Positions 3,657 through 55,393 of a stretch of DNA of 64,000 nt are shown here, one piece after another. The translations under genes and the position numbers were made by a program. Positions within the stretch are counted from its first letter, which is position 1, and every line of letters starts with the position of its first letter. Under the pieces are notes generated by a model. That model was not told the DNA's origin and did not search any database. It worked only from the letters and a program-made list of their open reading frames with translations. Location of the stretch: positions 2,345 to 66,344 of the forward strand of contig JACPHY010000016.1 of NCBI GenBank assembly GCA_016188355.1. Direction: 5' to 3'. This DNA is from Candidatus Uhrbacteria bacterium (lineage in GTDB: Bacteria; Patescibacteriota; Patescibacteriia; JACPHY01).

Positions 3657-3740
3657 ACAGGAAACCGCACCAATGTGCGGATCGATCTTTCCCACACATC
3701 GGTTCGATTTTGACTTGGAAGCTGAGAAAGGAGCTGCCTC

Positions 3741-4481
3741 GTGGGTGAACAGGACACGTCAGAGCGATCGGGATCGAGGTCTGGCATCGGGAAGACGGTA
3801 CTGGGCTGGTTTGTGCAAACCGATCCGAGCGGCCCATCCGATCCGGCAGAAGTCGCGCCAACAGATTCGGGGCAAGCCGCAGATGCAATTCCGGCATCCC
3901 TCCGCAAGGACGTCCAGCCGACGGTGCCCGCGGGCGCTCCCGTGGAGTCTCCTCCCGTACCGTCGACCCCGCCGATCGATGTCGAGGTCAATCTCGATTC
4001 GATCTACGCGGAGCAGGGACTCGCCAGCAATCCTGATGCCGAGCGGATTCTCGGTGCAATCGAAGGCATGCAGGGCATCGATGCGTCCGCACGCCGTGCG
4101 GCAGTGGTCGCCATGGTGCGGGCATTCGCGGTGGATGCGTCGACGCTGCGTGCGACATTGATGGATCGGACATCTGCGCTGGATGCGACCATTACGGACT
4201 GCGAGCGGGTCGCAGAGAGCGGTCGCACGGAGCGTGCGCGCTCCCTCGCGGCGCTCACCGCGTCGACGCAACAGGAAATCGCGGCGCTCCAAGAGGAGAT
4301 TGCACAGAAGGAACGCACGCTCGAGGGGACGCGCACCATGATGCAGCGGACGGAAGCCGCAGAACAAGAGAAACTGGATGGGCTCCGGGCGAAGCTCGGG
4401 GCAGAGCGCGATCGATTGACCGCGCTCATGGAGTATCTCCCCATGACGGGGAGCAGCCCGAAGGAGGGACTGAAGCCATGA
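3741..4481 (+). CDS. Hypothetical coiled-coil protein (Pro/Ala-rich N-terminus)
   Basis: 246-aa ORF with GTG start preceded by AAGGAG. Stop overlaps the start of the next gene (ATGA). Confidence 0.5.
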   Translation: MGEQDTSERSGSRSGIGKTVLGWFVQTDPSGPSDPAEVAPTDSGQAADAIPASLRKDVQPTVPAGAPVESPPVPSTPPIDVEVNLDSIYAEQGLASNPDAERILGAIEGMQGIDASARRAAVVAMVRAFAVDASTLRATLMDRTSALDATITDCERVAESGRTERARSLAALTASTQQEIAALQEEIAQKERTLEGTRTMMQRTEAAEQEKLDGLRAKLGAERDRLTALMEYLPMTGSSPKEGLKP

Positions 4482-6313: not shown

Positions 6314-6387
6314 TGGAGAGTTGGTGAACTGCGTGCCCGATCCCGATGCATCGGGGTCGGGCACATTCCTGAAGTGATCATGCGCTC

Positions 6388-15291: not shown

Positions 15292-16209
15292 TTGCCTATG
15301 GATTCGTCATTTGGAGGAAGAGATCGGATTACCGATCGACAGCTCCGCTGGGGGGCGTGGTATGTGGAGCATCGGGCGCAGCTGCAGCGACTCGGTCGGT
15401 GGATTGCGATTGGGGTGACCACGATGATCGGATTGTACGCATTGTGGCGATTGACGTGGTACGGGGCAGTCGAGTGGCCCCGTTTTCTCCGGAGTGCTCG
15501 CGTATGGTCTACGCCGAATAATGCACGAGGGACGTACGTGGCACAGCTCCGTCCGAAGCCCCCGGTGCTTGGCGAGGTGATGTTGATTGCGAATGGCGGA
15601 ACGAGCTACGATGCCGTCGCACAGGTGTCGAATCCGAATGCGAGATGGGTCGGCATCATGACCTATGAGCTCGAAGTGCCGGGCGCAGAACCGCAGGTTC
15701 TGCGTACGACATTACTCCCCGGGCGAGATCGCTGGATTACGCGTTTGAATGCGGTCTCGACTACGAATCCGACCCGTGCAACACTCGTGATTCGGGAGAC
15801 GGTGTGGGAACGGATTTCGCTGGAGGCATCCCGTGATCCGGAGCGATACGTGAGCGATCGGCTACGGGTGGAGATTGTGGATCCGAAATTCGTTCCTCCC
15901 GCCGCGCTGGTCTTGCAGACGGGGACCCCGTCGGTCGCGGTTTCTGGTGGAGCTCCCGTCCGCATATCACGCGCCACGTTCGGCGTGCGGAACACGAGTG
16001 CGTACACATTCCGAGAATTAGAGCTCGACATTCTTCTCCGGAGAGGATCGGGCATCGTGGGGGTGAATCGGGTGACCATTAGCGACCTCGTTCCGGGCGA
16101 GCAGCGCGCGGTAGCTGCGACGTGGTTCCAGCCACTCGGGCTCGTGCAGTCAGTGGAGGTTATTCCTTATACGGATGTCTTCAATCCGGGATCGTTTGTC
16201 ACTCGATGA
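15292..16209 (+). CDS. Hypothetical membrane protein upstream of the SEDS-family gene
   Basis: 305-aa ORF with an N-terminal TM segment; no family recognised. Confidence 0.5.
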   Translation: MPMDSSFGGRDRITDRQLRWGAWYVEHRAQLQRLGRWIAIGVTTMIGLYALWRLTWYGAVEWPRFLRSARVWSTPNNARGTYVAQLRPKPPVLGEVMLIANGGTSYDAVAQVSNPNARWVGIMTYELEVPGAEPQVLRTTLLPGRDRWITRLNAVSTTNPTRATLVIRETVWERISLEASRDPERYVSDRLRVEIVDPKFVPPAALVLQTGTPSVAVSGGAPVRISRATFGVRNTSAYTFRELELDILLRRGSGIVGVNRVTISDLVPGEQRAVAATWFQPLGLVQSVEVIPYTDVFNPGSFVTR

Positions 16210-17395
16210 TTGTGTATCTGTGGTTGAACATCTCCGTGCGTTGTGGTCGCGATTGGATAGTGTGCTCATGGCCGCGTTGGCGTTGCTCGCGACCTTCGGG
16301 CTGGTCGGTCTCTCGAGCCTCGCGTTGCGTGGTCATGCGCCAGATTTTTCCGTGGTCATGCGCCAGGGAGTTGCTTTGGGATTGGGCGTCATCGCGTTTT
16401 TCGTCGTTGCTCGAATTGATTGGCGTGCATGGGAGCGATGGTGGCCATTCGTGGCGGTCGGTACCCTCAGCGTGCTGATCGCGGTCTTGGTGGTGGGTGC
16501 TCGCGTGCATGGGACACGGGGATGGCTCACGATTGGGTCCTGGACGCTCCAGCCGGTGGAGTTTGCGAAAATAGGTTTGATCGTACTGCAGGCGGTTTAT
16601 TTTCGTCGGCGCGCGCGGTCACTTGGGCGTCTTCGGACGATTCTGGAGAGTGCGGCGATTACTGCGGTCATTGTCGTCCCAGTGCTTTTGCAGCCGGATT
16701 TGGGTTCCGCATTGGTGCTCCTCGCGACCTGGTTTGGCATGCTGCTCGTTTTGGGACTGCGCCGTGCGCATCTTCTCATGTTTGCGTTGGGTGCCTTCGC
16801 AGCAGCGGTGGTGGCGTGGTTTACGGTATTGCAGCCATACCAACGCGAGCGGATGCTCACGTTCCTCGATCCGAATCGCGATCCGCAGGGCGCGGGGTAC
16901 AATCAACGGCAAGCGGTGATTGCGATTGGCGCGGGAGGGTGGTTGGGGCGTGGATTCGGCCAGGGCACACAAGCGCAATTGCGGTTTCTCCCGGAGGCGC
17001 AATCGGATTTTTTGCCTGCGGTGGTAGGGGAGGAGTTCGGTTTTTTGGGAATGGCGGTGCTGGTGGTGTGTCTTTTGGCTATTGCGATTCGTTTGGGTTT
17101 GCTGGCGCGTCGATGCCCAGATGATGCCTCCGCAGCATTGGTGGTCGGCATCGCGATCTGTTTTGGGGTGCAGTCGGCATTCAATCTTGCCATGAATCTC
17201 GGTGTGGCTCCGGTGATGGGCGTGCCCTTCCCTTTTGTGAGTGCGGGCGGTAGTGCGATCCTTGCGTTTGCGTGCGCATTTGGTATGGTGTCGAGCATTG
17301 CGGCGACGGTGCCGCGCGCGGAACCGCGAGCGTATGCATTTGATGTACTTGCTTCGGTCCGTGATGCTCATGGGACATCAGAGAGGTGTGGATGA
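16175..17395 (+). CDS. SEDS-family peptidoglycan polymerase (RodA/FtsW)
   Basis: About 10 TM segments and conserved motifs (QPVEFAKIGLIV, FLPEAQSDFLPAVVGEEFGFLG); 35-nt overlap with the upstream gene. Confidence 0.8.
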   Translation: MSSIRDRLSLDDCVSVVEHLRALWSRLDSVLMAALALLATFGLVGLSSLALRGHAPDFSVVMRQGVALGLGVIAFFVVARIDWRAWERWWPFVAVGTLSVLIAVLVVGARVHGTRGWLTIGSWTLQPVEFAKIGLIVLQAVYFRRRARSLGRLRTILESAAITAVIVVPVLLQPDLGSALVLLATWFGMLLVLGLRRAHLLMFALGAFAAAVVAWFTVLQPYQRERMLTFLDPNRDPQGAGYNQRQAVIAIGAGGWLGRGFGQGTQAQLRFLPEAQSDFLPAVVGEEFGFLGMAVLVVCLLAIAIRLGLLARRCPDDASAALVVGIAICFGVQSAFNLAMNLGVAPVMGVPFPFVSAGGSAILAFACAFGMVSSIAATVPRAEPRAYAFDVLASVRDAHGTSERCG

Positions 17396-17447: not shown

Positions 17448-17789
17448 ATGCGTGCGAATCGACGACCTCCACAGTTTATCCAAGAGAGCCTCCGCCTCAT
17501 CTCATACTGTCCGGTGTGTGACACGAGCTACAACCCGATGGAGGCGCGAGTGATTGAAGATCGAGGCGATCAACACCTCATGCATATTCGGTGCAAGAAG
17601 TGCGCGCATTCTATTTTGGCGCTCGTGCTCACGAGCGGCATGGGGGTGAGTTCGATGGGTCTCCTCACGGATCTCGCATTTGAAGATGTGCTCAAATTTC
17701 GAGATGCGGCACCACTCACCCTAGATGACGTGATTGGATTTCACGAGCACTTGGAGGCGCAGGAGCGTGCCCCGAAAGAGCGGACATGA
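17448..17789 (+). CDS. Zinc-ribbon hypothetical protein (CPVC...CKKC)
   Basis: 113-aa ORF with two CxxC pairs. Confidence 0.45.
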   Translation: MRANRRPPQFIQESLRLISYCPVCDTSYNPMEARVIEDRGDQHLMHIRCKKCAHSILALVLTSGMGVSSMGLLTDLAFEDVLKFRDAAPLTLDDVIGFHEHLEAQERAPKERT

Positions 17790-17950
17790 TGCTGCATGAT
17801 CGTTCTTGTGCGGATCAGGGAACGGTGAGCGCTCGGGCGGATCGCGGAAGAAATGTTCGTGTGCGGCGGTAGGACTGGTGGATGGGCCATTGACAGGGAA
17901 ACGGGAGTTCGGTACGCTACCGATGTGCATCCGCGCGTACGGCGTGTTTC

Positions 17951-18125
17951 GGACCTATCGCCGAATGCCATTCCTGCTGCGAACGGCGATATTCGGCCGG
18001 AATCACCTCACCGGATATTGGCGTACCTTCCCAGTACGCCGGCAATCTGGATTCGGCGATTCCGTCTCGAATCTCGCCGTTCTCGCGACGGAAGCGCATT
18101 CGGCGATAGGTCCTTTTTGTTTTCC
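17951..18125 (+). ncRNA. Structured element A: 18-bp perfect outer stem enclosing a second 8-bp stem and three hairpins, ending in a U-tract, immediately upstream of the L25 gene
   Basis: ggacctatcgccgaatgc (17951-17968) pairs exactly with gcattcggcgataggtcc (18096-18113), followed by tttttgttttcc. Inner pairs gaacggcg/cgccgttc, gcgtac/gtacgc and cggcga/tcgccg. Confidence 0.4.
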
Positions 18126-18156
18126 GGCGCGTCGATGATTCGACGCATGTAACATT

Positions 18157-18810
18157 ATGGCTACGCATACTCTTGCAGCGACCCCTCGAACGGTATTGGG
18201 TCGAAAGGTGAATCAGCTGCGACGCTCGGGATCTATTCCGGCCGTCATTTACGGACACGGGGTGCCCGCACGTTCGTTGACCGTTTCTGCTGTAGAATTT
18301 CAGCGCCTGGAACGTTCCGCACCTGGTGCGGCATTGCTTGATCTGGCCATTGAAGGCGGAGCTCCGGTGAAGGCGCTCCTCCAGGAGGTGGCACGACATC
18401 CGGTGCACGGTCAGGTGGTTCATATTGATTTTCGGGAGGTATCGATGACCGAAGAAGTGGAGACGCAGATTCCGCTTCGTTTTACGGGCACTGCCCCGGT
18501 GCTTTCGGATGGATCGTACGTGCTGGTGAAGCAGCTCGATCATTTGGATGTTCGTGCCTTGCCCGGAGCACTCGTGGAGGAGATTGTGATCGACCTCGCG
18601 TCCTTGGTCACGGGAGACGACCTGATCGCCATTCGTGATATCGCCCTGCCTCCTGGCATTACGGCGGAACATGAACCGGAGGACATCGTGGTTTCGGTGA
18701 CGGAGGTGCAGGAGGAGGCGGTGGCTCCGGTCGCCGAGGTGAGTCCTGCTGATGTTCCGGTAGTGGAGAAGAAGGAGAAGGCGAAAGAAGATGAAGGAAG
18801 CGAGAAGTAA
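18157..18810 (+). CDS. rplY: 50S ribosomal protein L25 / general stress protein Ctc (long form)
   Basis: Begins MATHTLAATPRTVLGRKVNQLRRSGSIPAVIYG, canonical L25 start; acidic C-terminal extension. Confidence 0.85.
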   Translation: MATHTLAATPRTVLGRKVNQLRRSGSIPAVIYGHGVPARSLTVSAVEFQRLERSAPGAALLDLAIEGGAPVKALLQEVARHPVHGQVVHIDFREVSMTEEVETQIPLRFTGTAPVLSDGSYVLVKQLDHLDVRALPGALVEEIVIDLASLVTGDDLIAIRDIALPPGITAEHEPEDIVVSVTEVQEEAVAPVAEVSPADVPVVEKKEKAKEDEGSEK

Positions 18811-18825
18811 TACCTGCAGCATAGC

Positions 18826-20055
18826 ATGCGCGGTCATCGAGTTCGTCGCCACCGGATTGGGACTCGAACGTTCGCGCGCTTGCGCGGGATTTTATTGCAA
18901 TATCGATCAGCGGCCCTTCGATGGGCCGCTGATCGATCGTTTCGGTGGGGGGTGGTTGGCGTCGGCATTGTGGTGATGATGTTGGGGAGTGTGTCGATTT
19001 GGGCATGGTGGCACACGAGTATCCGTGGGCATAAAGCTCCCATGCAAGCTCCGGCGGTATTGGTACATTCAGATGATCGTGCGGTTCTAACCAGAGCCGC
19101 GCCCGTAGCGCCGGTCATACGCCGCTGGATTGATGGGCAACCGCTCCCTGAGGGCACTGCGCAGCCATTCGCCGTGGCGGTGGTCGTGGACAATGCGTCC
19201 GAAGCGCGTCCGCAGTCTGGACTATCAGAGGCACCGATCGTGGTGGAGGTGCCGGTGGAAGGTCGACGGACGCGGTTTGTGGTGTTTGCGTCACTCGATG
19301 GAGCATTGTCGGAGCTAGGACCGGTGCGATCCGCACGACCCTACCTCATCGGTATCGCGCGGCATTTCGGCGTCCCCTTGGTGCATGTGGGTGGTAGTCC
19401 GGAGGCGCTGACCCTCTTTCGGGATTTGCGTCTCTTTCACGTGAATCAGTATTATGATCCGCCGTTCTGGCGGAGCCGTTCGCGACCCGCGCCATTCAAT
19501 GTGTATACGGCAGTGGATCGACTCGCTGCATTTGTGCGTGCGCGTGCGCAAGAGCAGTGGAAGCGGCAGCCGCTCCCACTGCTCCCGTATGTGGAGTCTG
19601 TGCCCTCCACGCAGGGGTCGGTGGCCGCGCAACTCCGCATTACGTATTCCGCTGCTCATGTGGTGGAGTGGCGCTATGACGCGGAGCGCGCGGTGTATGT
19701 GCGTTCGCAGGATGGGCGTCCGCATCGCGATGCTGCGGGGCATTCGATTGAGGCGGTGAATGTGCTGGTGCTTGAGGTGCGTTCGCGGGTGCTTGATGCG
19801 ATGGGACGGCTTCGGATTCCGGACCTCGATCCGCGAGATCGCACCGCGGGAGACGGCGGCAAGCGGACCGCAATCGTGATGACGCGTGGGCGACGGGTGG
19901 ATGGGTTCTGGAATTGGCATGCCGAGCAGAACGCGGACCCGCCGTCTGCTGCGCGTATTCGATTCCGGCCCTCCGTACCTTCGGATGCGCCCACGGTATT
20001 GCAGGTGGGGAACACTTGGATCGAGATTGTGGACCAGGGGACCGCGGTACAGTAG
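18826..20055 (+). CDS. DUF3048-family (YerB-like) membrane-anchored protein
   Basis: N-terminal TM followed by a DUF3048-like region; start uncertain. Confidence 0.6.
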   Translation: MRGHRVRRHRIGTRTFARLRGILLQYRSAALRWAADRSFRWGVVGVGIVVMMLGSVSIWAWWHTSIRGHKAPMQAPAVLVHSDDRAVLTRAAPVAPVIRRWIDGQPLPEGTAQPFAVAVVVDNASEARPQSGLSEAPIVVEVPVEGRRTRFVVFASLDGALSELGPVRSARPYLIGIARHFGVPLVHVGGSPEALTLFRDLRLFHVNQYYDPPFWRSRSRPAPFNVYTAVDRLAAFVRARAQEQWKRQPLPLLPYVESVPSTQGSVAAQLRITYSAAHVVEWRYDAERAVYVRSQDGRPHRDAAGHSIEAVNVLVLEVRSRVLDAMGRLRIPDLDPRDRTAGDGGKRTAIVMTRGRRVDGFWNWHAEQNADPPSAARIRFRPSVPSDAPTVLQVGNTWIEIVDQGTAVQ

Positions 20056-22076: not shown

Positions 22077-22181
22077 AAGGAATGCGCGGCAGGGATCCGA
22101 TGAGGGAGGAGGGGCCTCGTACGCTATCGTACCGCACACCGCGAGCCTTTGGAGGCTCGCGGTGTGCGGTACGCCGTCAAA

Positions 22182-22560: not shown

Positions 22561-22578
22561 GTGCAGTGGGAAGATAGG

Positions 22579-22609
22579 AAAACCCCCACCCTTGAAGGGT
22601 GGGGGTTTT
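22579..22609 (-). terminator. Intrinsic terminator of the large secreted-protein gene (13-bp stem aaaacccccaccc/gggtgggggtttt)
   Basis: Perfect 13-bp stem with ttgaa loop; U-run follows on the minus strand directly after the gene stop at 22624. Confidence 0.55.
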
Positions 22610-22623
22610 CCGGTTGCTGCTCG

Positions 22624-24840
22624 TTAGAGTCCGAACAGCTTTTCAAGGTCGCTTGCCCCGGAATTTCCGCTCTGTTTGCGGAATGTATCAAAGGCGTCGA
22701 GCTTGAGTCCTGTTGATGCACTCGAGCTTCCGAATGCGCTCGATGACTTTTGCCCGCGCGCTTCTTGAAGCGCGTTGTTGAGCGAATTTCGAGCCTCGGA
22801 GAGCTGCTCAAATGCCTCCAGAAGTGCATCGGTGTCCACCGGCTTCTTCTTGGCGAGGCCCTGAATCTGGGCGAGCACGATCTTCCCATCGCTGAGCGCT
22901 GCCTCGAGCGACTTTACGTCCACGCGTTTGCGCTTCAGGGTCGTGATCTCGCGCTGGATTTTCGAGACCTCCTTGGTCGCATCGGAAATACCGCGACCCA
23001 TGTCGGTCACCGATCGGATCGCTTCAATTTTTTCACGGATGTCATCGAAACTGTCCCGGAGTTCGAAGAGACGATCGAGCGACTCCTCACTGACCGATTT
23101 CATTGCTTCTGCGAGTGCGTTCTTGATTTCTCCGATGGATTTACCGGCAGCGTCGATTTCTTCGCTCACGTCGATCTTCGCACGAGTCGCTTGGCTGGTG
23201 ATTCGCTTGAGATCCGACTCCATGCGTCGGAGTTCGCTCGTGAGCTGTTTCGAGACGCGCGGGAATTCCTGGATGCGCTGACAGTGGTCCACGGTTTCTC
23301 GGACACGGTCACCTACGTCCGCGAATTCCGAGAAGTCCACATCCTGTACTTCTTCAACGTCGGTAGCAGATTGGACCTTCGTGAGCGAATCGCGCAGCAT
23401 CTGGAGTCCATCGGTTACCTCCTCTGGGACCTCCACCTTTGCTTTCGTGCAGATGGCTAGGGCGCTCGACATTCGCTTATATCCGGATTCCAGATCCTTC
23501 AATCGCTTCTTCGCCTCCTTCAGCATCTGCTCTTTCTGCTGTTTCTCCATTTCCTCGCCCATCTCGTCGTTGGGCTGCATCCGATCCGACGCGTCGCCCA
23601 TTTCCGGTCGACCAAGGGATTCGCTGCCGATGCCATCAGCAGAGCGGCGAGCGGGGGAGCATTTTTCTTGCACCATTCGGCGCTGTGCCTCACTGGGCCC
23701 GCTTCCACTGCGGAGTTGATCGACCTTGTCGCCGATGACGGAGCGGACGCAGGATTCGAACTCATTTGCCGCGGGGCGCATGTTTTGTGCCTCCCCACCG
23801 AATTTGTTGTTTTCATTGGGTCCAGAGAACGGCGCGCGAGCTCCTCCAAGGACTGAGGGGTCGTTATCGGGCATCCGTTTGGAATCCTGCATGCGCGTCG
23901 CATCCTCCATGGGAGGACCCTTCATCACTTCCCCGGGTCCCTGGGGGGCCTTTGGGGTGAGTCCCGATGGGTCGTTGCGGGTCATTCCATTGATGCCATT
24001 GGGGCCATTCACGCCGTTCATCCCATTCAAACCATTCATCCCGTTGATGCCGTTTAGTCCATTCATCCCATTCGGTGCGCCCGGAAAGTTCGTTCCCACA
24101 TTCGGCCCGGAGTTGGGATTGTTGAAATTATTTGGCTGGTTTCCACCGAAATTCGTATTGGGGCCACCCATTCCCCCAGGGGAATTCATGTTCCCGGATT
24201 TGAGCGGATCCTTGGAGTCACCGGAGCCGCCGGGGGGTTGTTGGCCGCCAAAGTTATTGCCACCCAATCCCGGCATGCCGCCGAAATTATTCCCTCCGGG
24301 CGTTCCACCGAAGTTTGGGCCACCGAAATTGCCTCCCGGATTTCCTGGATTCCCGCCAAAATTATTTCCGCCGGGATTGATTCCAGTGTTCCCTCCGCCG
24401 GGATTTCCCCCGAAATCACCTCCTCCGGGATTCCCACCGAACGATCCTCCTGGTGGCGGACCTCCGAACGATCCTCCTGGTGGCGGACCTCCGGGCGAAC
24501 CGCCTGGTGGCGGACCTCCTGGGGGTGGACCTCCTGGGGAGCCGCCGCCTGGCGGGGGTCCTCCGGGGGGTGGACCTCCGGGATCCTCTGCGGCGCGGAA
24601 AGTGGCGCTGCCCGATTTCGACCATGATGCACGAAGTTCCGAGCATTCCTCCTGCTGATCCATGCAGAAAGAGGTGCACTCTGCCTCCGTGGTGCATTTG
24701 CCATCAAGATATGGAGGAACAATGAAATCTGCGGTGACGCGGTACTGATCGATGGAATTCGCCGCAATGATGGTTGCGGATGGGGCGAGTACCACGATGA
24801 GTCCCGCAGTAATGAGCTGCTTGCGGTAGGGAAACGCCAT
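22624..24840 (-). CDS. Large secreted/surface low-complexity protein (signal peptide, Cys-rich head, GGPPPGG and GxNGxNG repeat arrays, C-terminal coiled coil)
   Basis: 738-aa ORF with an N-terminal hydrophobic signal-like segment. About 250 aa of Gly/Pro/Asn repeats, then an alpha-helical C-terminal half. Confidence 0.7.
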   Translation of the reverse strand: MAFPYRKQLITAGLIVVLAPSATIIAANSIDQYRVTADFIVPPYLDGKCTTEAECTSFCMDQQEECSELRASWSKSGSATFRAAEDPGGPPPGGPPPGGGSPGGPPPGGPPPGGSPGGPPPGGSFGGPPPGGSFGGNPGGGDFGGNPGGGNTGINPGGNNFGGNPGNPGGNFGGPNFGGTPGGNNFGGMPGLGGNNFGGQQPPGGSGDSKDPLKSGNMNSPGGMGGPNTNFGGNQPNNFNNPNSGPNVGTNFPGAPNGMNGLNGINGMNGLNGMNGVNGPNGINGMTRNDPSGLTPKAPQGPGEVMKGPPMEDATRMQDSKRMPDNDPSVLGGARAPFSGPNENNKFGGEAQNMRPAANEFESCVRSVIGDKVDQLRSGSGPSEAQRRMVQEKCSPARRSADGIGSESLGRPEMGDASDRMQPNDEMGEEMEKQQKEQMLKEAKKRLKDLESGYKRMSSALAICTKAKVEVPEEVTDGLQMLRDSLTKVQSATDVEEVQDVDFSEFADVGDRVRETVDHCQRIQEFPRVSKQLTSELRRMESDLKRITSQATRAKIDVSEEIDAAGKSIGEIKNALAEAMKSVSEESLDRLFELRDSFDDIREKIEAIRSVTDMGRGISDATKEVSKIQREITTLKRKRVDVKSLEAALSDGKIVLAQIQGLAKKKPVDTDALLEAFEQLSEARNSLNNALQEARGQKSSSAFGSSSASTGLKLDAFDTFRKQSGNSGASDLEKLFGL
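24420..24600. repeat. Tandem 15/27-nt codon repeats (ggtggcggacctcc...) encoding the GGPPPGG array inside the large gene
   Basis: Direct near-identical DNA repeats visible at 24430-24590. A second NG-repeat array lies near 23990-24075. Confidence 0.5.
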
Positions 24841-45131: not shown

Positions 45132-47180
45132 ATGGCACAGCATCAGGGATTCGTGCGCATTGCGACTGCGGTACCTCGAGTACATGTCGGAGATCCTGAG
45201 GCGAACGTGCGGGCGATGGTTGAGCTCGCGAAAACAGCGGGGAATGCCGGTGCGCAGGTGCTCGTGTTCCCAGAGCTTGGGATCACCGGATACACCTGCC
45301 GGGATCTCTTCCTGCAGCCGGAGCTGCAGCGGGCTGCGTACGCACAGCTGCGCACGTTTGTGATGCGAATGGATAATGAGGCGTGCCGCGGCATGCTTGC
45401 GATTGTGGGGCTGCCGCTCGCAGTGGACGGACAGCTGTTCAATGTGGCAGCGGTTGTGGTAGCAGGGGAGGCGCGGGTGCTCGCGTACATCCCGAAGGTA
45501 TACCTCCCGGGGTACAAGGAGTTTGAGGAGAATCGGTGGTTTGCACCTGCGGATCGATTGTGCAGCACGGTCCATGCGGATGATGGCGCGCTCATTGGCG
45601 CGGATATTCTGATCGACGTGCGCACGACCGCAATGCGGCGGTTCACGCTCGGCGTCGAGATTTGTGAGGATCTCTGGATGCCGATCCCGCCCAGCTCGCA
45701 TCTCGCAAATCAGGGTGCGACCGTGCTCCTGAATTGCTCCGCGTCAAACGCGGTTGTGGGCAAGGCGGACTACCGTCGCGAGCTCGTGCGGGGTCAGTCC
45801 TCGCGGTGCATCGCGGCGTACGCGTACGTCTCGTGTGGTCCGGGGGAATCCACCGCGGACGTCTCCTTTGATGGACATGCGTTCATTGCGGAGAACGGAT
45901 CGCTGCTCGCGGAATCGCCGCGATTTCAGCGGACGGGACACCTCACGGTCGCGGATGTGGACGTGGAGCGTTTGCTCCGCGAGCGAACCATGACCGGAAG
46001 TTTCGGGCAGTCCGTCGCGTCAGAGCAACGCGCGTACCGACGCGTGCTTGCGGATGGCATCACGGAACTCAATGTGCGGCAGTCGTTTCGGCGGAGTGTG
46101 GATCCGTTCCCGTTCGTACCGCGTGACCCCGCAACACGCGATGCGCGGTGTGATGAGGTGTTCGCGATTCAGGTGGATGGTCTGACGCGTCGCCTCGAGC
46201 ACCTCGAAGCGATGACCGGGAAGCGACAGGTGAGCATCGGCATCTCCGGTGGGCTCGACTCGACGCTCGCGCTGCTCGTCGTCGTCCGTGCGTTCCAGGC
46301 GCTTGGGTGGGATCTTTCGGGGATCCACGCATACACGTTCCCGGGGTTCGGAACCACTGACCGCACGAAGAGCAATGCGTACGCGCTCTGCGCAGCGCTC
46401 GGCGTTCCGTTGCGTGAGGTGTCCATCGTCGAAGCGTCATTGCTCACGTTGCGTCAGCTGGGGCACCTGCATGCGGACGAGCAGCCGCACCGCGATTGCC
46501 TCACCTGTCAGAACGCGCAGGCGCGCATTCGAACGCTCTTTCTGATGACGGACGGATTCGTCATTGGCACTGGCGACCTCTCCGAGAGCGCGCTCGGGTG
46601 GTGCACGTACAATGGCGACCACATGTCCATGTACAACGTGAACGCGGGCGTGCCGAAGACACTCGTCCGGTACGTGGTGGGCTGGGTGGCAGAGCGCGGG
46701 TTGCTCGGAGCAGCGGCATCAACCGTGCTCCGCGATATCCTCGCGACGCCGATCTCGCCCGAGCTCGATCCCGTAGCCGCAGATGGCCAGATGGGGCACA
46801 CGACCGAGGAGCAGATTGGTCCGTACGACCTGCACGATTTCTTCCTGTTCCACTTCCTTCGGAATGGGTATGGTCCCCGGAAGATTGTTTTCCTTGCGGA
46901 ATGTGCGTTCGCCAATATCCGATGGGAAGACGGTCCGCATCGCGGAGAACTCAAGTATCCGTCGTCCGTGATTCGGAAGTGGCTGCTCGAGTTCTTCCGG
47001 AGGTTCCCGAAGGCGCAGTTCAAGCGGGACGCGGCGCCGGACGGTGTGAAGGTAGGATCTGTCGCTCTTTCGCAGCGCGGAGACTGGCGCATGCCGAGCG
47101 ACGTGGACATGGCGCTTTGGGTTCATGAGGCGGAGGCTCTCCTCGCAGAGGCAGAGCATCGGGACGCAGACACGGATTGA
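45132..47180 (+). CDS. nadE: Glutamine-dependent NAD+ synthetase (nitrilase-type glutaminase domain plus NAD synthase domain)
   Basis: AAGGAGG RBS before MAQHQG. CN-hydrolase N-domain (VFPELGITGY) and PP-loop SGGLDSTLAL. Confidence 0.9.
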   Translation: MAQHQGFVRIATAVPRVHVGDPEANVRAMVELAKTAGNAGAQVLVFPELGITGYTCRDLFLQPELQRAAYAQLRTFVMRMDNEACRGMLAIVGLPLAVDGQLFNVAAVVVAGEARVLAYIPKVYLPGYKEFEENRWFAPADRLCSTVHADDGALIGADILIDVRTTAMRRFTLGVEICEDLWMPIPPSSHLANQGATVLLNCSASNAVVGKADYRRELVRGQSSRCIAAYAYVSCGPGESTADVSFDGHAFIAENGSLLAESPRFQRTGHLTVADVDVERLLRERTMTGSFGQSVASEQRAYRRVLADGITELNVRQSFRRSVDPFPFVPRDPATRDARCDEVFAIQVDGLTRRLEHLEAMTGKRQVSIGISGGLDSTLALLVVVRAFQALGWDLSGIHAYTFPGFGTTDRTKSNAYALCAALGVPLREVSIVEASLLTLRQLGHLHADEQPHRDCLTCQNAQARIRTLFLMTDGFVIGTGDLSESALGWCTYNGDHMSMYNVNAGVPKTLVRYVVGWVAERGLLGAAASTVLRDILATPISPELDPVAADGQMGHTTEEQIGPYDLHDFFLFHFLRNGYGPRKIVFLAECAFANIRWEDGPHRGELKYPSSVIRKWLLEFFRRFPKAQFKRDAAPDGVKVGSVALSQRGDWRMPSDVDMALWVHEAEALLAEAEHRDADTD

Positions 47181-54448: not shown

Positions 54449-55216
54449 ATGTGGCCCGATTATCGAAAGCAGCCGTTGTTTGCTGGACTTTTTGCGTTGG
54501 TACTACTCGGAGCGTTTGCGTGGGAGCTTGCTGCAGCAACCGAGCACGCGCGGAATGCTGCTGCGGTGCGAAAACCAACTCCACCCATTCGTGAGCTCAC
54601 CGTTTCCGGTACGGGTAAGGTACGCGGTATTCCCGATACCGCGGTGATTACTGCCGGCATGACGGTGCAGGGAACCGAGGTGCGTATCGTGCAGTCGGAA
54701 GTGAACAAGAAGACGACTGCGCTGATTGCGGCGGTAAAGCGTGCGGGAGTTGCGGCAGAGGATATTCAAACCGCTCAATTTTCGATTACCCCGCGTTACG
54801 TGTACGGCGAGCGCGTCGCGCCTTCTATTAGTGGATACGAAGCATCGCAGTCGGTTGAAGTGCGCATCCGAAATCTCGAAAAGGTGAACACGGTGCTTGA
54901 TGCAATGGGTGATGCGGGTGCCACGAATATTGGTAACCTGCAATTTATCATTGATAATCCACAGGGGCTGCAGGCGGAGGCGCGGGAGCGGGCAATTGCG
55001 GATGCGCGCGCAAAGGCGGGAACGATCTCGGGTCAGCTGCGCGTGCGATTGGTTCGTGCGGTAGGCTTTCAGGAGGGCGGCGGCTATGTTCCTCCCATGA
55101 TGCCGCTCATGCTCCGAGGTGACATGGGCGGCGGTGAGGCGGTGCCCGCGCCGACCGTGGAAAAGGGGAGCCAAGATATCGTGTCGAATGTGTCGGTGAC
55201 GTTTGAAATTGAATAA
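54449..55216 (+). CDS. SIMPL-domain (DUF541/YggE-like) periplasmic protein
   Basis: Signal-like MWPDYRKQPLFAGLFALVLLGAFA, then TVSGTGKVRGIPDTA and a typical SIMPL core. Confidence 0.7.
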   Translation: MWPDYRKQPLFAGLFALVLLGAFAWELAAATEHARNAAAVRKPTPPIRELTVSGTGKVRGIPDTAVITAGMTVQGTEVRIVQSEVNKKTTALIAAVKRAGVAAEDIQTAQFSITPRYVYGERVAPSISGYEASQSVEVRIRNLEKVNTVLDAMGDAGATNIGNLQFIIDNPQGLQAEARERAIADARAKAGTISGQLRVRLVRAVGFQEGGGYVPPMMPLMLRGDMGGGEAVPAPTVEKGSQDIVSNVSVTFEIE

Positions 55217-55393
55217 CGAGACCTCTGCGAAAATCCAGATTCGCGCCAGGAACGCGCTGTTCGGCTGCGCTGCGTTCCTCGACCACTCACGAGATCCGCT
55301 GGATATCGCTCGGGTCTGCGTCGCGCAGCTCGCTCGAACATCACGTCCCTGGCGCGAAAGCGATTTTTGTAGAGGTCTCTAACGTTGTTTTCC
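55217..55393 (+). ncRNA. Structured element B: 19-bp imperfect outer stem, nested 9-bp stem and inner hairpins, U-rich tail ending 8 nt before the eno start
   Basis: gagacctctgcgaaaatc (55217-55234) pairs with gatttttgtagaggtctct (55362-55380). Inner cgcgccagg/cctggcgcg and aggaacgc/gcgttcct. Same architecture as element A. Confidence 0.4.

Follow-up and report, generated by a model that had tools for sequence, protein, structure and literature searches.

Palindromic MITEs (miniature transposable elements with inverted repeats), such as Correia/CREE in Neisseria, ERIC/IRU and YPAL in enterobacteria and RUP in S. pneumoniae, are non-coding units of 100–170 nt that carry terminal inverted repeats and fold as a single long hairpin, are present or absent at orthologous intergenic sites, are transcribed with their neighbours and occur in tens to hundreds of closely similar copies. 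Such elements are reported to be subject to RNase III cleavage or to alter mRNA stability, long duplexes of the Correia type being cleaved by this enzyme (PMC10969869), and interspersed repeats whose transcript resembles a terminator of hairpin plus U-tract have been described (PMC10969869; PMC3049150). REPINs, which depend on the Y1/HUH transposases named RAYTs, are symmetric hairpins of two inverted ends and a spacer, in which length and pairing capacity rather than sequence are conserved and compensatory changes are common (PMC3116915). The genomes of the Candidate Phyla Radiation (CPR)/Patescibacteria are small and gene-dense, interspersed palindromic repeats have hardly been described there, and a full-text literature search retrieved no paper specifically on MITEs in Patescibacteria or CPR genomes, the only three co-mentions concerning other subjects. 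Here we analysed a 64-kb stretch of a Candidatus Uhrbacteria (CPR/Patescibacteria) metagenome-assembled genome (MAG), referred to as the window, and within it a 163-nt imperfect palindrome, E1 (17951–18113, plus strand), lying in the 5′ leader of rplY, the gene of ribosomal protein L25/Ctc. With a probability of roughly 0.7, E1 is one insertion, in this leader, of a palindromic, non-autonomous mobile element belonging to the MITE/REPIN class; it is neither a conserved L25 regulatory leader nor a known small RNA. This assignment is based on the structure of E1, its relatedness to and shared orientation with a second element, E2 (55218–55379), the precise presence or absence of both at orthologous loci, assembly breaks of the repeat type, and a motif shared by the flanks.

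Compared with the palindromic MITEs, E1 and E2 are of the same kind in size, non-coding nature, terminal inverted repeats, single long hairpin, presence or absence at orthologous intergenic sites and predicted transcription with their neighbours, and E2 has a short flanking direct repeat; they differ in that only two members, ~50% identical, were seen, in having no known parent insertion sequence and in residing in a small-genome CPR bacterium. With REPINs they share the symmetric hairpin of two inverted ends and a spacer, and the retention of length and pairing amid compensatory changes; E1 can also adopt a "clover" alternative, its two arms each pairing locally. In SBW25 REPINs the invariant 16-mers lie 71 bp apart, whereas E1 and E2 are longer, at 162–163 nt; moreover, no RAYT was found in the window, and the apparent 4-nt duplication at E2 is unexpected for Y1 transposition. 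Unlike the interspersed repeats that resemble terminators, E1 borders a U-tract that belongs to its target, and its hairpin is several times longer than that of a normal terminator. The 5′ untranslated region (UTR) position is shared with ribosomal-protein autoregulatory leaders such as the Rfam L25 leader, but E1 matches no such model, is not kept in relatives and is not specific to L25.

Sequence, fold and coding potential of E1

E1 was delimited by its folds, its inverted repeats and its absence from a close relative. Its exact 18-bp outer stem is formed by a left arm, GGACCTATCGCCGAATGC (17951–17968, plus strand), which was retrieved by inverted-repeat search and is a candidate terminal inverted repeat, and by a right arm (18096–18113, plus strand) that is its exact reverse complement 127 nt away and is also present in independent assemblies (L001–L003). 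The T-run TTTTTGTTTT stands directly 3′ of this stem, where the T-rich tract TTTTTGTTTTCC occupies 18114–18125 (plus strand). The original prediction, made from the sequence without database searches, had named these arms, their spacing and the T-tract as well as an 8-bp inner stem, all of which were reproduced; the inner stem, GAACGGCG/CGCCGTTC, sits in 15-nt arms (17981–17995 and 18068–18082) that are 93% complementary. TTTC at the left flank of E1 (17947–17950, plus strand) and TTTT at the right (18114–18117), as read from the sequence, could form an imperfect 4-nt target duplication, a resemblance that is not statistically meaningful inside a T-run.

Folded as RNA together with its tail (175 nt), E1 reached a minimum free energy (MFE) of −100.9 kcal/mol, against −55.1 ± 4.2 kcal/mol for 200 dinucleotide shuffles (z = −11, 0/200), and its energy per nucleotide, −0.61 kcal/mol per nt, ranked first among 817 window segments anchored on inverted 7-mers. 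Both the MFE and the centroid structures were unbranched, one rod of ~65 pairs interrupted by small bulges and capped by a 7-nt apical loop, and the 18-bp basal stem accounted for −36.2 kcal/mol. The multi-stem, internally branched architecture proposed before was therefore not recovered; the local hairpins proposed with it do form when the two halves are folded apart, but as a far weaker alternative (~−48 kcal/mol versus ~−100 kcal/mol for the whole). The minus strand of E1 folded at −104 kcal/mol, as stably as the plus strand, and carried no strand-specific G-U signature. With both strands folding equally well, E1 is a palindrome at the DNA level that favours neither strand; its plus orientation was assigned by covariance-model comparison with E2. 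With regard to intrinsic termination, E1 has a G+C-rich stem followed by a U-run, but it is not a compact hairpin ending a transcription unit, being 163 nt long and placed between the L25 promoter and ATG. A generic terminator scan missed E1 because that scan requires a loop of 3–8 nt.

A coding gene at this position was rejected. The two plus-strand open reading frames (ORFs) over E1 had no Pfam family, and the six-frame translations of E1 had no match among 5.8 billion protein clusters. A search of 1.84 billion protein representatives returned a lone match, a 582-aa tandem-repeat protein with 44% identity over its best-matching ~37 aa, which was rejected as a homologue since its score was inflated by repeats; the earlier remark that these overlapping ORFs lack family resemblance thus stood for Pfam and for credible homologues, this one spurious match apart. 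At 163 nt and non-coding, E1 is within the size expected of a MITE (short, < about 500 bp). An Rfam scan, which had been suggested as a check on the original prediction, found no relevant family: the whole window gave no match at gathering thresholds, and positions 17700–18300 at E ≤ 10 gave a single irrelevant match (E = 8.3) and nothing for 6S, 5S or the L25 leader. Neither a tRNA nor a tmRNA was found in the entire 64-kb window. Searches of E1 against plasmids gave only 26–29-nt matches (E 0.1–0.5), which were taken as chance, and those against phages gave none. Within the window, the terminal 18-mer of E1 was found only in its own two arms by blastn-short, nhmmer and a pattern search allowing 3 mismatches.

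A related hairpin upstream of the enolase gene

E2 is a 162-nt rod-like hairpin (55218–55379, plus strand) between the SIMPL gene (stop codon 55214–55216) and the enolase gene (ATG 55401). It was first found by a sliding energy scan of the window, with a fold of −90.4 kcal/mol (z = −7), and was retrieved also by covariance model. TAAC lies directly left of E2 (55214–55217, plus strand) and is repeated directly right of it (55380–55383), and this perfect repeat, with a chance probability of 1/256, is a candidate 4-nt target-site duplication.

E1 and E2 have a common design of 162–163 nt with an 18-bp outer stem and the termini G(A)GACCT...AGGTC(T)C, and in both an asymmetric internal loop follows right after the outer stem (CA/GC versus CAGA/AGC). 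The terminal inverted repeats typical of MITEs are present in each, as exact 18-bp arms in E1 and as 18 bp including 2 G-T positions in E2. When the two elements were globally aligned in the same orientation, the score had a z of 4.3, and 0/1000 palindrome-preserving shuffles were as good. Supportively, a covariance model built from E1 alone returned E2 as the best non-self match in 128 kb of searched strand, aligned end to end with 40.9 bits and E = 5.7e-6, whereas E2 in the opposite orientation scored 30.1 bits, 10.8 bits below the plus orientation. This match was obtained with the filters of the search switched off, and default filters as well as nhmmer missed E2. In the alignment of E1, the reverse complement of E1 and E2, 96% of the cells were paired and 27/65 pairs were changed on both sides, a count that comes from two independent sequences only and from an alignment fitted to the model. 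Inverted conserved ends with a spacer hairpin carrying compensatory changes, as in REPINs, are thus present.

The placement of the two elements is likewise shared. Both have the same orientation relative to the downstream gene, and E1 ends 43 nt and E2 21 nt 5′ of the respective start codon. The exact 9-mer TTGTTTTCC has just three copies on both strands of the window, two of which lie 3–5 nt downstream of the elements: one begins 3 nt after E1, within TTTTTGTTTTCC (18117–18125, plus strand), and one 5 nt after E2 (55385–55393, plus strand). The third is inside the NAD synthase gene (46885–46893), in unremarkable surroundings. TTGTTTTCC may be a target motif, judging from this distribution.

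No further copy of the E1/E2 type was found in the window by blastn-short, nhmmer, the 3-mismatch pattern, the energy scan or the covariance model. The covariance model also picked out, on account of their stems alone, four short palindromes, perfect or nearly so, whose arms reach 21 bp (22128–22173, 22577–22611, 6333–6364 and 18902–18937); they may be ordinary terminators, as at least the first two stand at the edges of called ORFs.

Orthologous loci and independent assemblies

The rplY leader was compared with those of the closest relative available, L004 (GCA_016206015.1, contig JACQSL010000012.1; L25 78% identical), and of a more distant relative used as outgroup, L005. A promoter-like site, TTGACA (17890–17895) and TACGCT (17913–17918) with a 17-nt spacer (17890–17918, plus strand), ends 32 nt 5′ of E1 and is kept in both, at 123–128/146–151 in L004 and as TTGACT-N17-TACTAT at 3955–3983 in L005. 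A generic consensus promoter scan omitted this site because its −10 hexamer matches at just 3/6 positions. The predicted transcription start is near 17925, which would place E1 within a 5′ UTR of ~230 nt. L004 and the window have in common TTGACA-N17-TACGCT, the leader up to ...GCGCGTCCGGTG and the T-rich tract, and only the 163 nt of E1 are missing from L004: upstream of L25 it reads CCATTGACAGGGGAATCGGGGGTCGCTACGCTACCGATGTGCATCCGCGCGTCCGGTGTTTTTTTGTTTCTGGC...CATTATG, and the window reads CCATTGACAGGGAAACGGGAGTTCGGTACGCTACCGATGTGCATCCGCGCGTACGGCGTGTTTC, then the 163 nt, then TTTTTGTTTTCCGGC...CATTATG. At the position of the T-rich tract that follows E1, L004 reads TGTTTTTTTGTTTCTGGC without the hairpin. 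The boundaries of presence and absence coincide with the base of the E1 stem; these junctions were read by eye, a MAFFT alignment of the L004 leader to the window being misleading. Since L004 has the promoter and the T-rich leader without the hairpin, E1 lies inside the predicted rplY 5′ UTR without being a conserved part of that leader, and the U-run 3′ of E1 belongs to the target site and not to the element. In L005 the order FtsW, small protein, L25 is retained with a spacer of 59 nt. The stems on which the original prediction was built are thus not conserved at the orthologous site in the relatives.

At the second locus the same relative also lacks the element, with only 25 nt from the SIMPL stop codon to the enolase ATG (L035). 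E1 and E2 are therefore both missing, with precise boundaries, from GCA_016206015.1, which is the presence/absence pattern at orthologous sites characteristic of MITEs.

Assemblies of independent sequencing runs of the same organism (Logan contigs, k = 31; L001–L003, L036, L037 and L039) carried further information on the unit. Logan contigs end at 55247 and start at 55350, in both cases exactly 30 nt (k−1) inward from the E2 end. Such a pattern is the signature expected of a 162-nt repeat unit present in those metagenomes with different flanks as well; the breaks would imply at least one more copy of E2 there, and the repeat unit is delimited as exactly the hairpin, 55218–55379. Two other causes do not predict these positions, an empty-site allele, which would break at 55218 and 55380, and self-complementarity, as the two terminal 30-mers differ. 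The junction of the E1 right arm with the L25 leader was the same in three independent assemblies (L001–L003), and both E2 junctions were reproduced with identical sequence in independent assemblies. An assembly artefact is unlikely because of these reproduced junctions.

Around E1, the plus strand carries an FtsW/RodA gene (16175–17395), a gene of a small Cys-rich protein (17448–17789) followed by a 367-nt spacer, rplY (18157–18810) and, 3′ of it, a DUF3048 gene, and prmC and prfA lie nearby on the minus strand. L25 is intact, with 217 aa, the Pfam families PF01386 and PF14693 and 100% identity to an NCBI Candidatus Uhrbacteria protein; the RodA, PGK, SIMPL and enolase proteins of the window likewise have identical NCBI entries, encoded with that of L25 on one contig. 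The original prediction had pointed out that no Shine-Dalgarno sequence precedes it, and no sequence of GGAGG type was found in the 31 nt (18126–18156) before its ATG at 18157. The stretches before L25 in L004 (200–222) and L005 (3984–4000) also lack one, the predicted L005 5′ UTR being ~10–14 nt, so that the missing Shine-Dalgarno sequence is a clade-wide trait of the gene and not a consequence of the hairpin.

Separately, the L004 contig terminates (L004:1–108) within an rve-type (DDE) transposase, of which the C-terminal tail is left (rve_3, E = 7e-4, a 19-aa stretch); this tail lies ~15 nt 5′ of the L25 promoter and replaces the FtsW and small-protein genes. With this tail beside the promoter, the L25 upstream region is an insertion site in L004 too. 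Elsewhere in the window, the GC skew is positive in all 2-kb bins and the plus strand holds most genes, and tandem repeats in which CCTCCTGG/GGCGGACC abound, with periods of 15, 27 and 45 nt, occupy 24392–24583 inside a long minus-strand ORF (22624–24840) with no Pfam match.

Probable mobility, alternative explanations and implications

If E1 is a mobile palindrome, the unit moved would be exactly the 162–163-nt hairpin, mobilised at the DNA level by a transposase acting in trans. The enzyme could be a DDE transposase, provided that the 4-nt repeats at the flanks arose by target duplication, and TAAC/TAAC favours this type; or it may be a Y1/RAYT enzyme acting on single-stranded hairpins, which hairpin biology and the clade context allow. 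The landing sites would be short T-rich spacers just 5′ of genes, beside the TTGTTTTCC motif; for E1 the site would be the T-run of the rplY leader, 3′ of the conserved promoter and 5′ of the start codon. As RNA, E1 would be co-transcribed with rplY from near 17925 and fold into a duplex of ~65 pairs, whose 18-bp base (−36 kcal/mol) set against the pre-existing U-run UUUUUGUUUU would create a site resembling an intrinsic terminator. The predicted output is the release of an RNA of ~190–200 nt and lower read-through into L25, and the long duplex would be a plausible substrate of RNase III. Such RNA effects would be by-products of the insertion and not an evolved control specific to L25.

Several observations weigh against a mobile element. 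Just two members were seen in 64 kb, with ~50% sequence identity, and the window lacks the many copies of a conserved REP sequence (16- to 25-mer) that mark REPINs. The flanking duplication is perfect at E2 only. No transposase was found in the window among 30 previously uncharacterised ORFs examined with Pfam or among the other identified genes, and tblastn of the window with a Y1 transposase gave no match. Searches with the E1 18-mer and 16-mer in GTDB representative genomes, JGI metagenomes and IMG/VR, collections that do not hold the genome of the window, returned only single-arm chance matches, never with the second arm nearby. The assembly break in E1 is less informative than those in E2, as three runs break at 18075, 39 nt from the end of E1 and not at k−1; this position is non-diagnostic of copy number and may stem from a sibling copy or from variation between strains at 18074. 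The polarity of the change, gain here versus loss in the relative, is judged for E1 from one relative and one outgroup, and for E2 from one relative. Finally, two diverged members that have kept near-perfect hairpins could reflect selection on an RNA function.

This last point leads to the best of the alternatives, which we nevertheless regard as unlikely, that of a lineage-specific cis-acting RNA module under selection, in which a giant hairpin with a U-rich tail before highly expressed genes (rplY and eno) would serve as an attenuator or terminator, an RNase III site or an mRNA-stability element, its mobile origin being secondary or absent. The common orientation of the two elements to the downstream gene, their position 21–43 nt 5′ of start codons and the 27/65 compensated pairs at ~50% identity all suit such a module, as do the abutment of the E1 stem base on UUUUUGUUUU, the UAACGUUGUUUUCC that follows E2, and the occurrence of unrelated long hairpins just 5′ of genes in other Uhrbacteria. 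However, the U-run at the L25 locus is older than the hairpin, both orthologous sites in the nearest relative are empty, the equal folding of both strands leaves no RNA-strand signature, and in assembly graphs the E2 unit behaves like a repeat; to separate an intact ribosomal-protein gene from a promoter by a strong terminator would also be an odd design.

Two further explanations treat E1 as an RNA device of its own locus. An independent, trans-acting small RNA gene (e.g. 6S-like) of ~190–200 nt, running from the TTGACA-N17-TACGCT promoter to the U-run, would account for the promoter-like site 32 nt 5′ of E1, the terminator-like 3′ end and a size within the small-RNA range. It is very improbable, given that no Rfam model including 6S matches even at E ≤ 10, that the rod has no large central bubble, that the promoter in question is the conserved one of L25, driving this gene in relatives that have no hairpin, and that no promoter-like site was noticed, on reading the sequence, near E2, which lies within an operon. 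L25 leaders are known in Gammaproteobacteria, and the position of E1 in the rplY leader would agree with an autoregulatory leader mimicking the L25 site on 5S rRNA (loop E/helix IV); this is more doubtful still, as no 5S rRNA or ribosomal-protein leader model matches at E ≤ 10, no loop-E-like motif was recognised by eye, E1 is absent from the relatives' leaders and a related element precedes enolase. Of the structured RNA or ribosomal-protein leader originally proposed, what persists is a non-coding, strongly structured element in the L25 leader with the geometry of a terminator or attenuator; the leader or RNA-gene part is opposed by the lack of an Rfam match, the absence in relatives and the related element before enolase. 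Least credible of all is a fold-back or chimeric join in the MAG. Misassembly classically strikes at palindromes, and both elements contain breaks of the Logan contigs; but E1 pairs imperfectly, its bulges and 7-nt loop being foreign to a fold-back, and the assemblies of several runs are identical in sequence at E1's right junction and at the two junctions of E2.

The insertion of a mobile palindrome also has a context in the clade. In a related Uhrbacteria genome, L040 (GCA_043805865.1, contig JAZDHL010000036.1), a Y1 (IS200-like) transposase gene (3736–4422, minus strand; PF01797, 31 bits) lies between tsf and gap, and four copies of the palindrome GTTCAAAGCCNGGCTTTGAAC in and around it (L040:3709–4518) form a RAYT/REP-like arrangement; this REP-like sequence is unrelated to E1 and E2. 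L040 also carries a 145-nt hairpin of C/G runs 8 nt 5′ of a gene (L040:17218–17362) and a hairpin of CGAAT/ATTCG repeats in the SIMPL–enolase spacer (L040:9861–9992), and in a further Uhrbacteria genome, L041, a 105-nt hairpin that is AT-rich and contains short internal repeats lies just 5′ of a gene (L041:12654–12758). Homology of these long hairpins to E1 and E2 was unsupported (z ≤ 2.7). Long, sequence-diverse palindromes just 5′ of genes seem to recur in the Uhrbacteria clade.

More speculatively, E1 and E2 might represent a previously undescribed CPR hairpin family of ~162 nt that keeps its geometry rather than its sequence and homes to TTGTTTTCC-containing spacers 5′ of highly expressed genes. 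The members of such a family, a possibility that we hold only tentatively, would be either REPIN-like elements with an unusually long unit driven by Y1/RAYT enzymes, or co-opted portable attenuator or RNase III modules that tune ribosomal-protein and glycolytic genes in a streamlined genome.

The novelty of the mobile-element assignment is modest and lies in host range; no new principle is demonstrated, and E1 reveals no new class of regulatory RNA. For genome analysis, elements of this type break short-k-mer assemblies at predictable positions, which matters for the assembly of MAGs, and spurious ORFs are called over them in annotation. For the biology of the CPR, the assignment would mean that such palindromic elements exist there and land ahead of a ribosomal-protein gene, behind a promoter, as well as within a glycolytic operon, and it makes E1 a testable case of a mobile hairpin that would create a terminator-like site before an apparently intact housekeeping gene.

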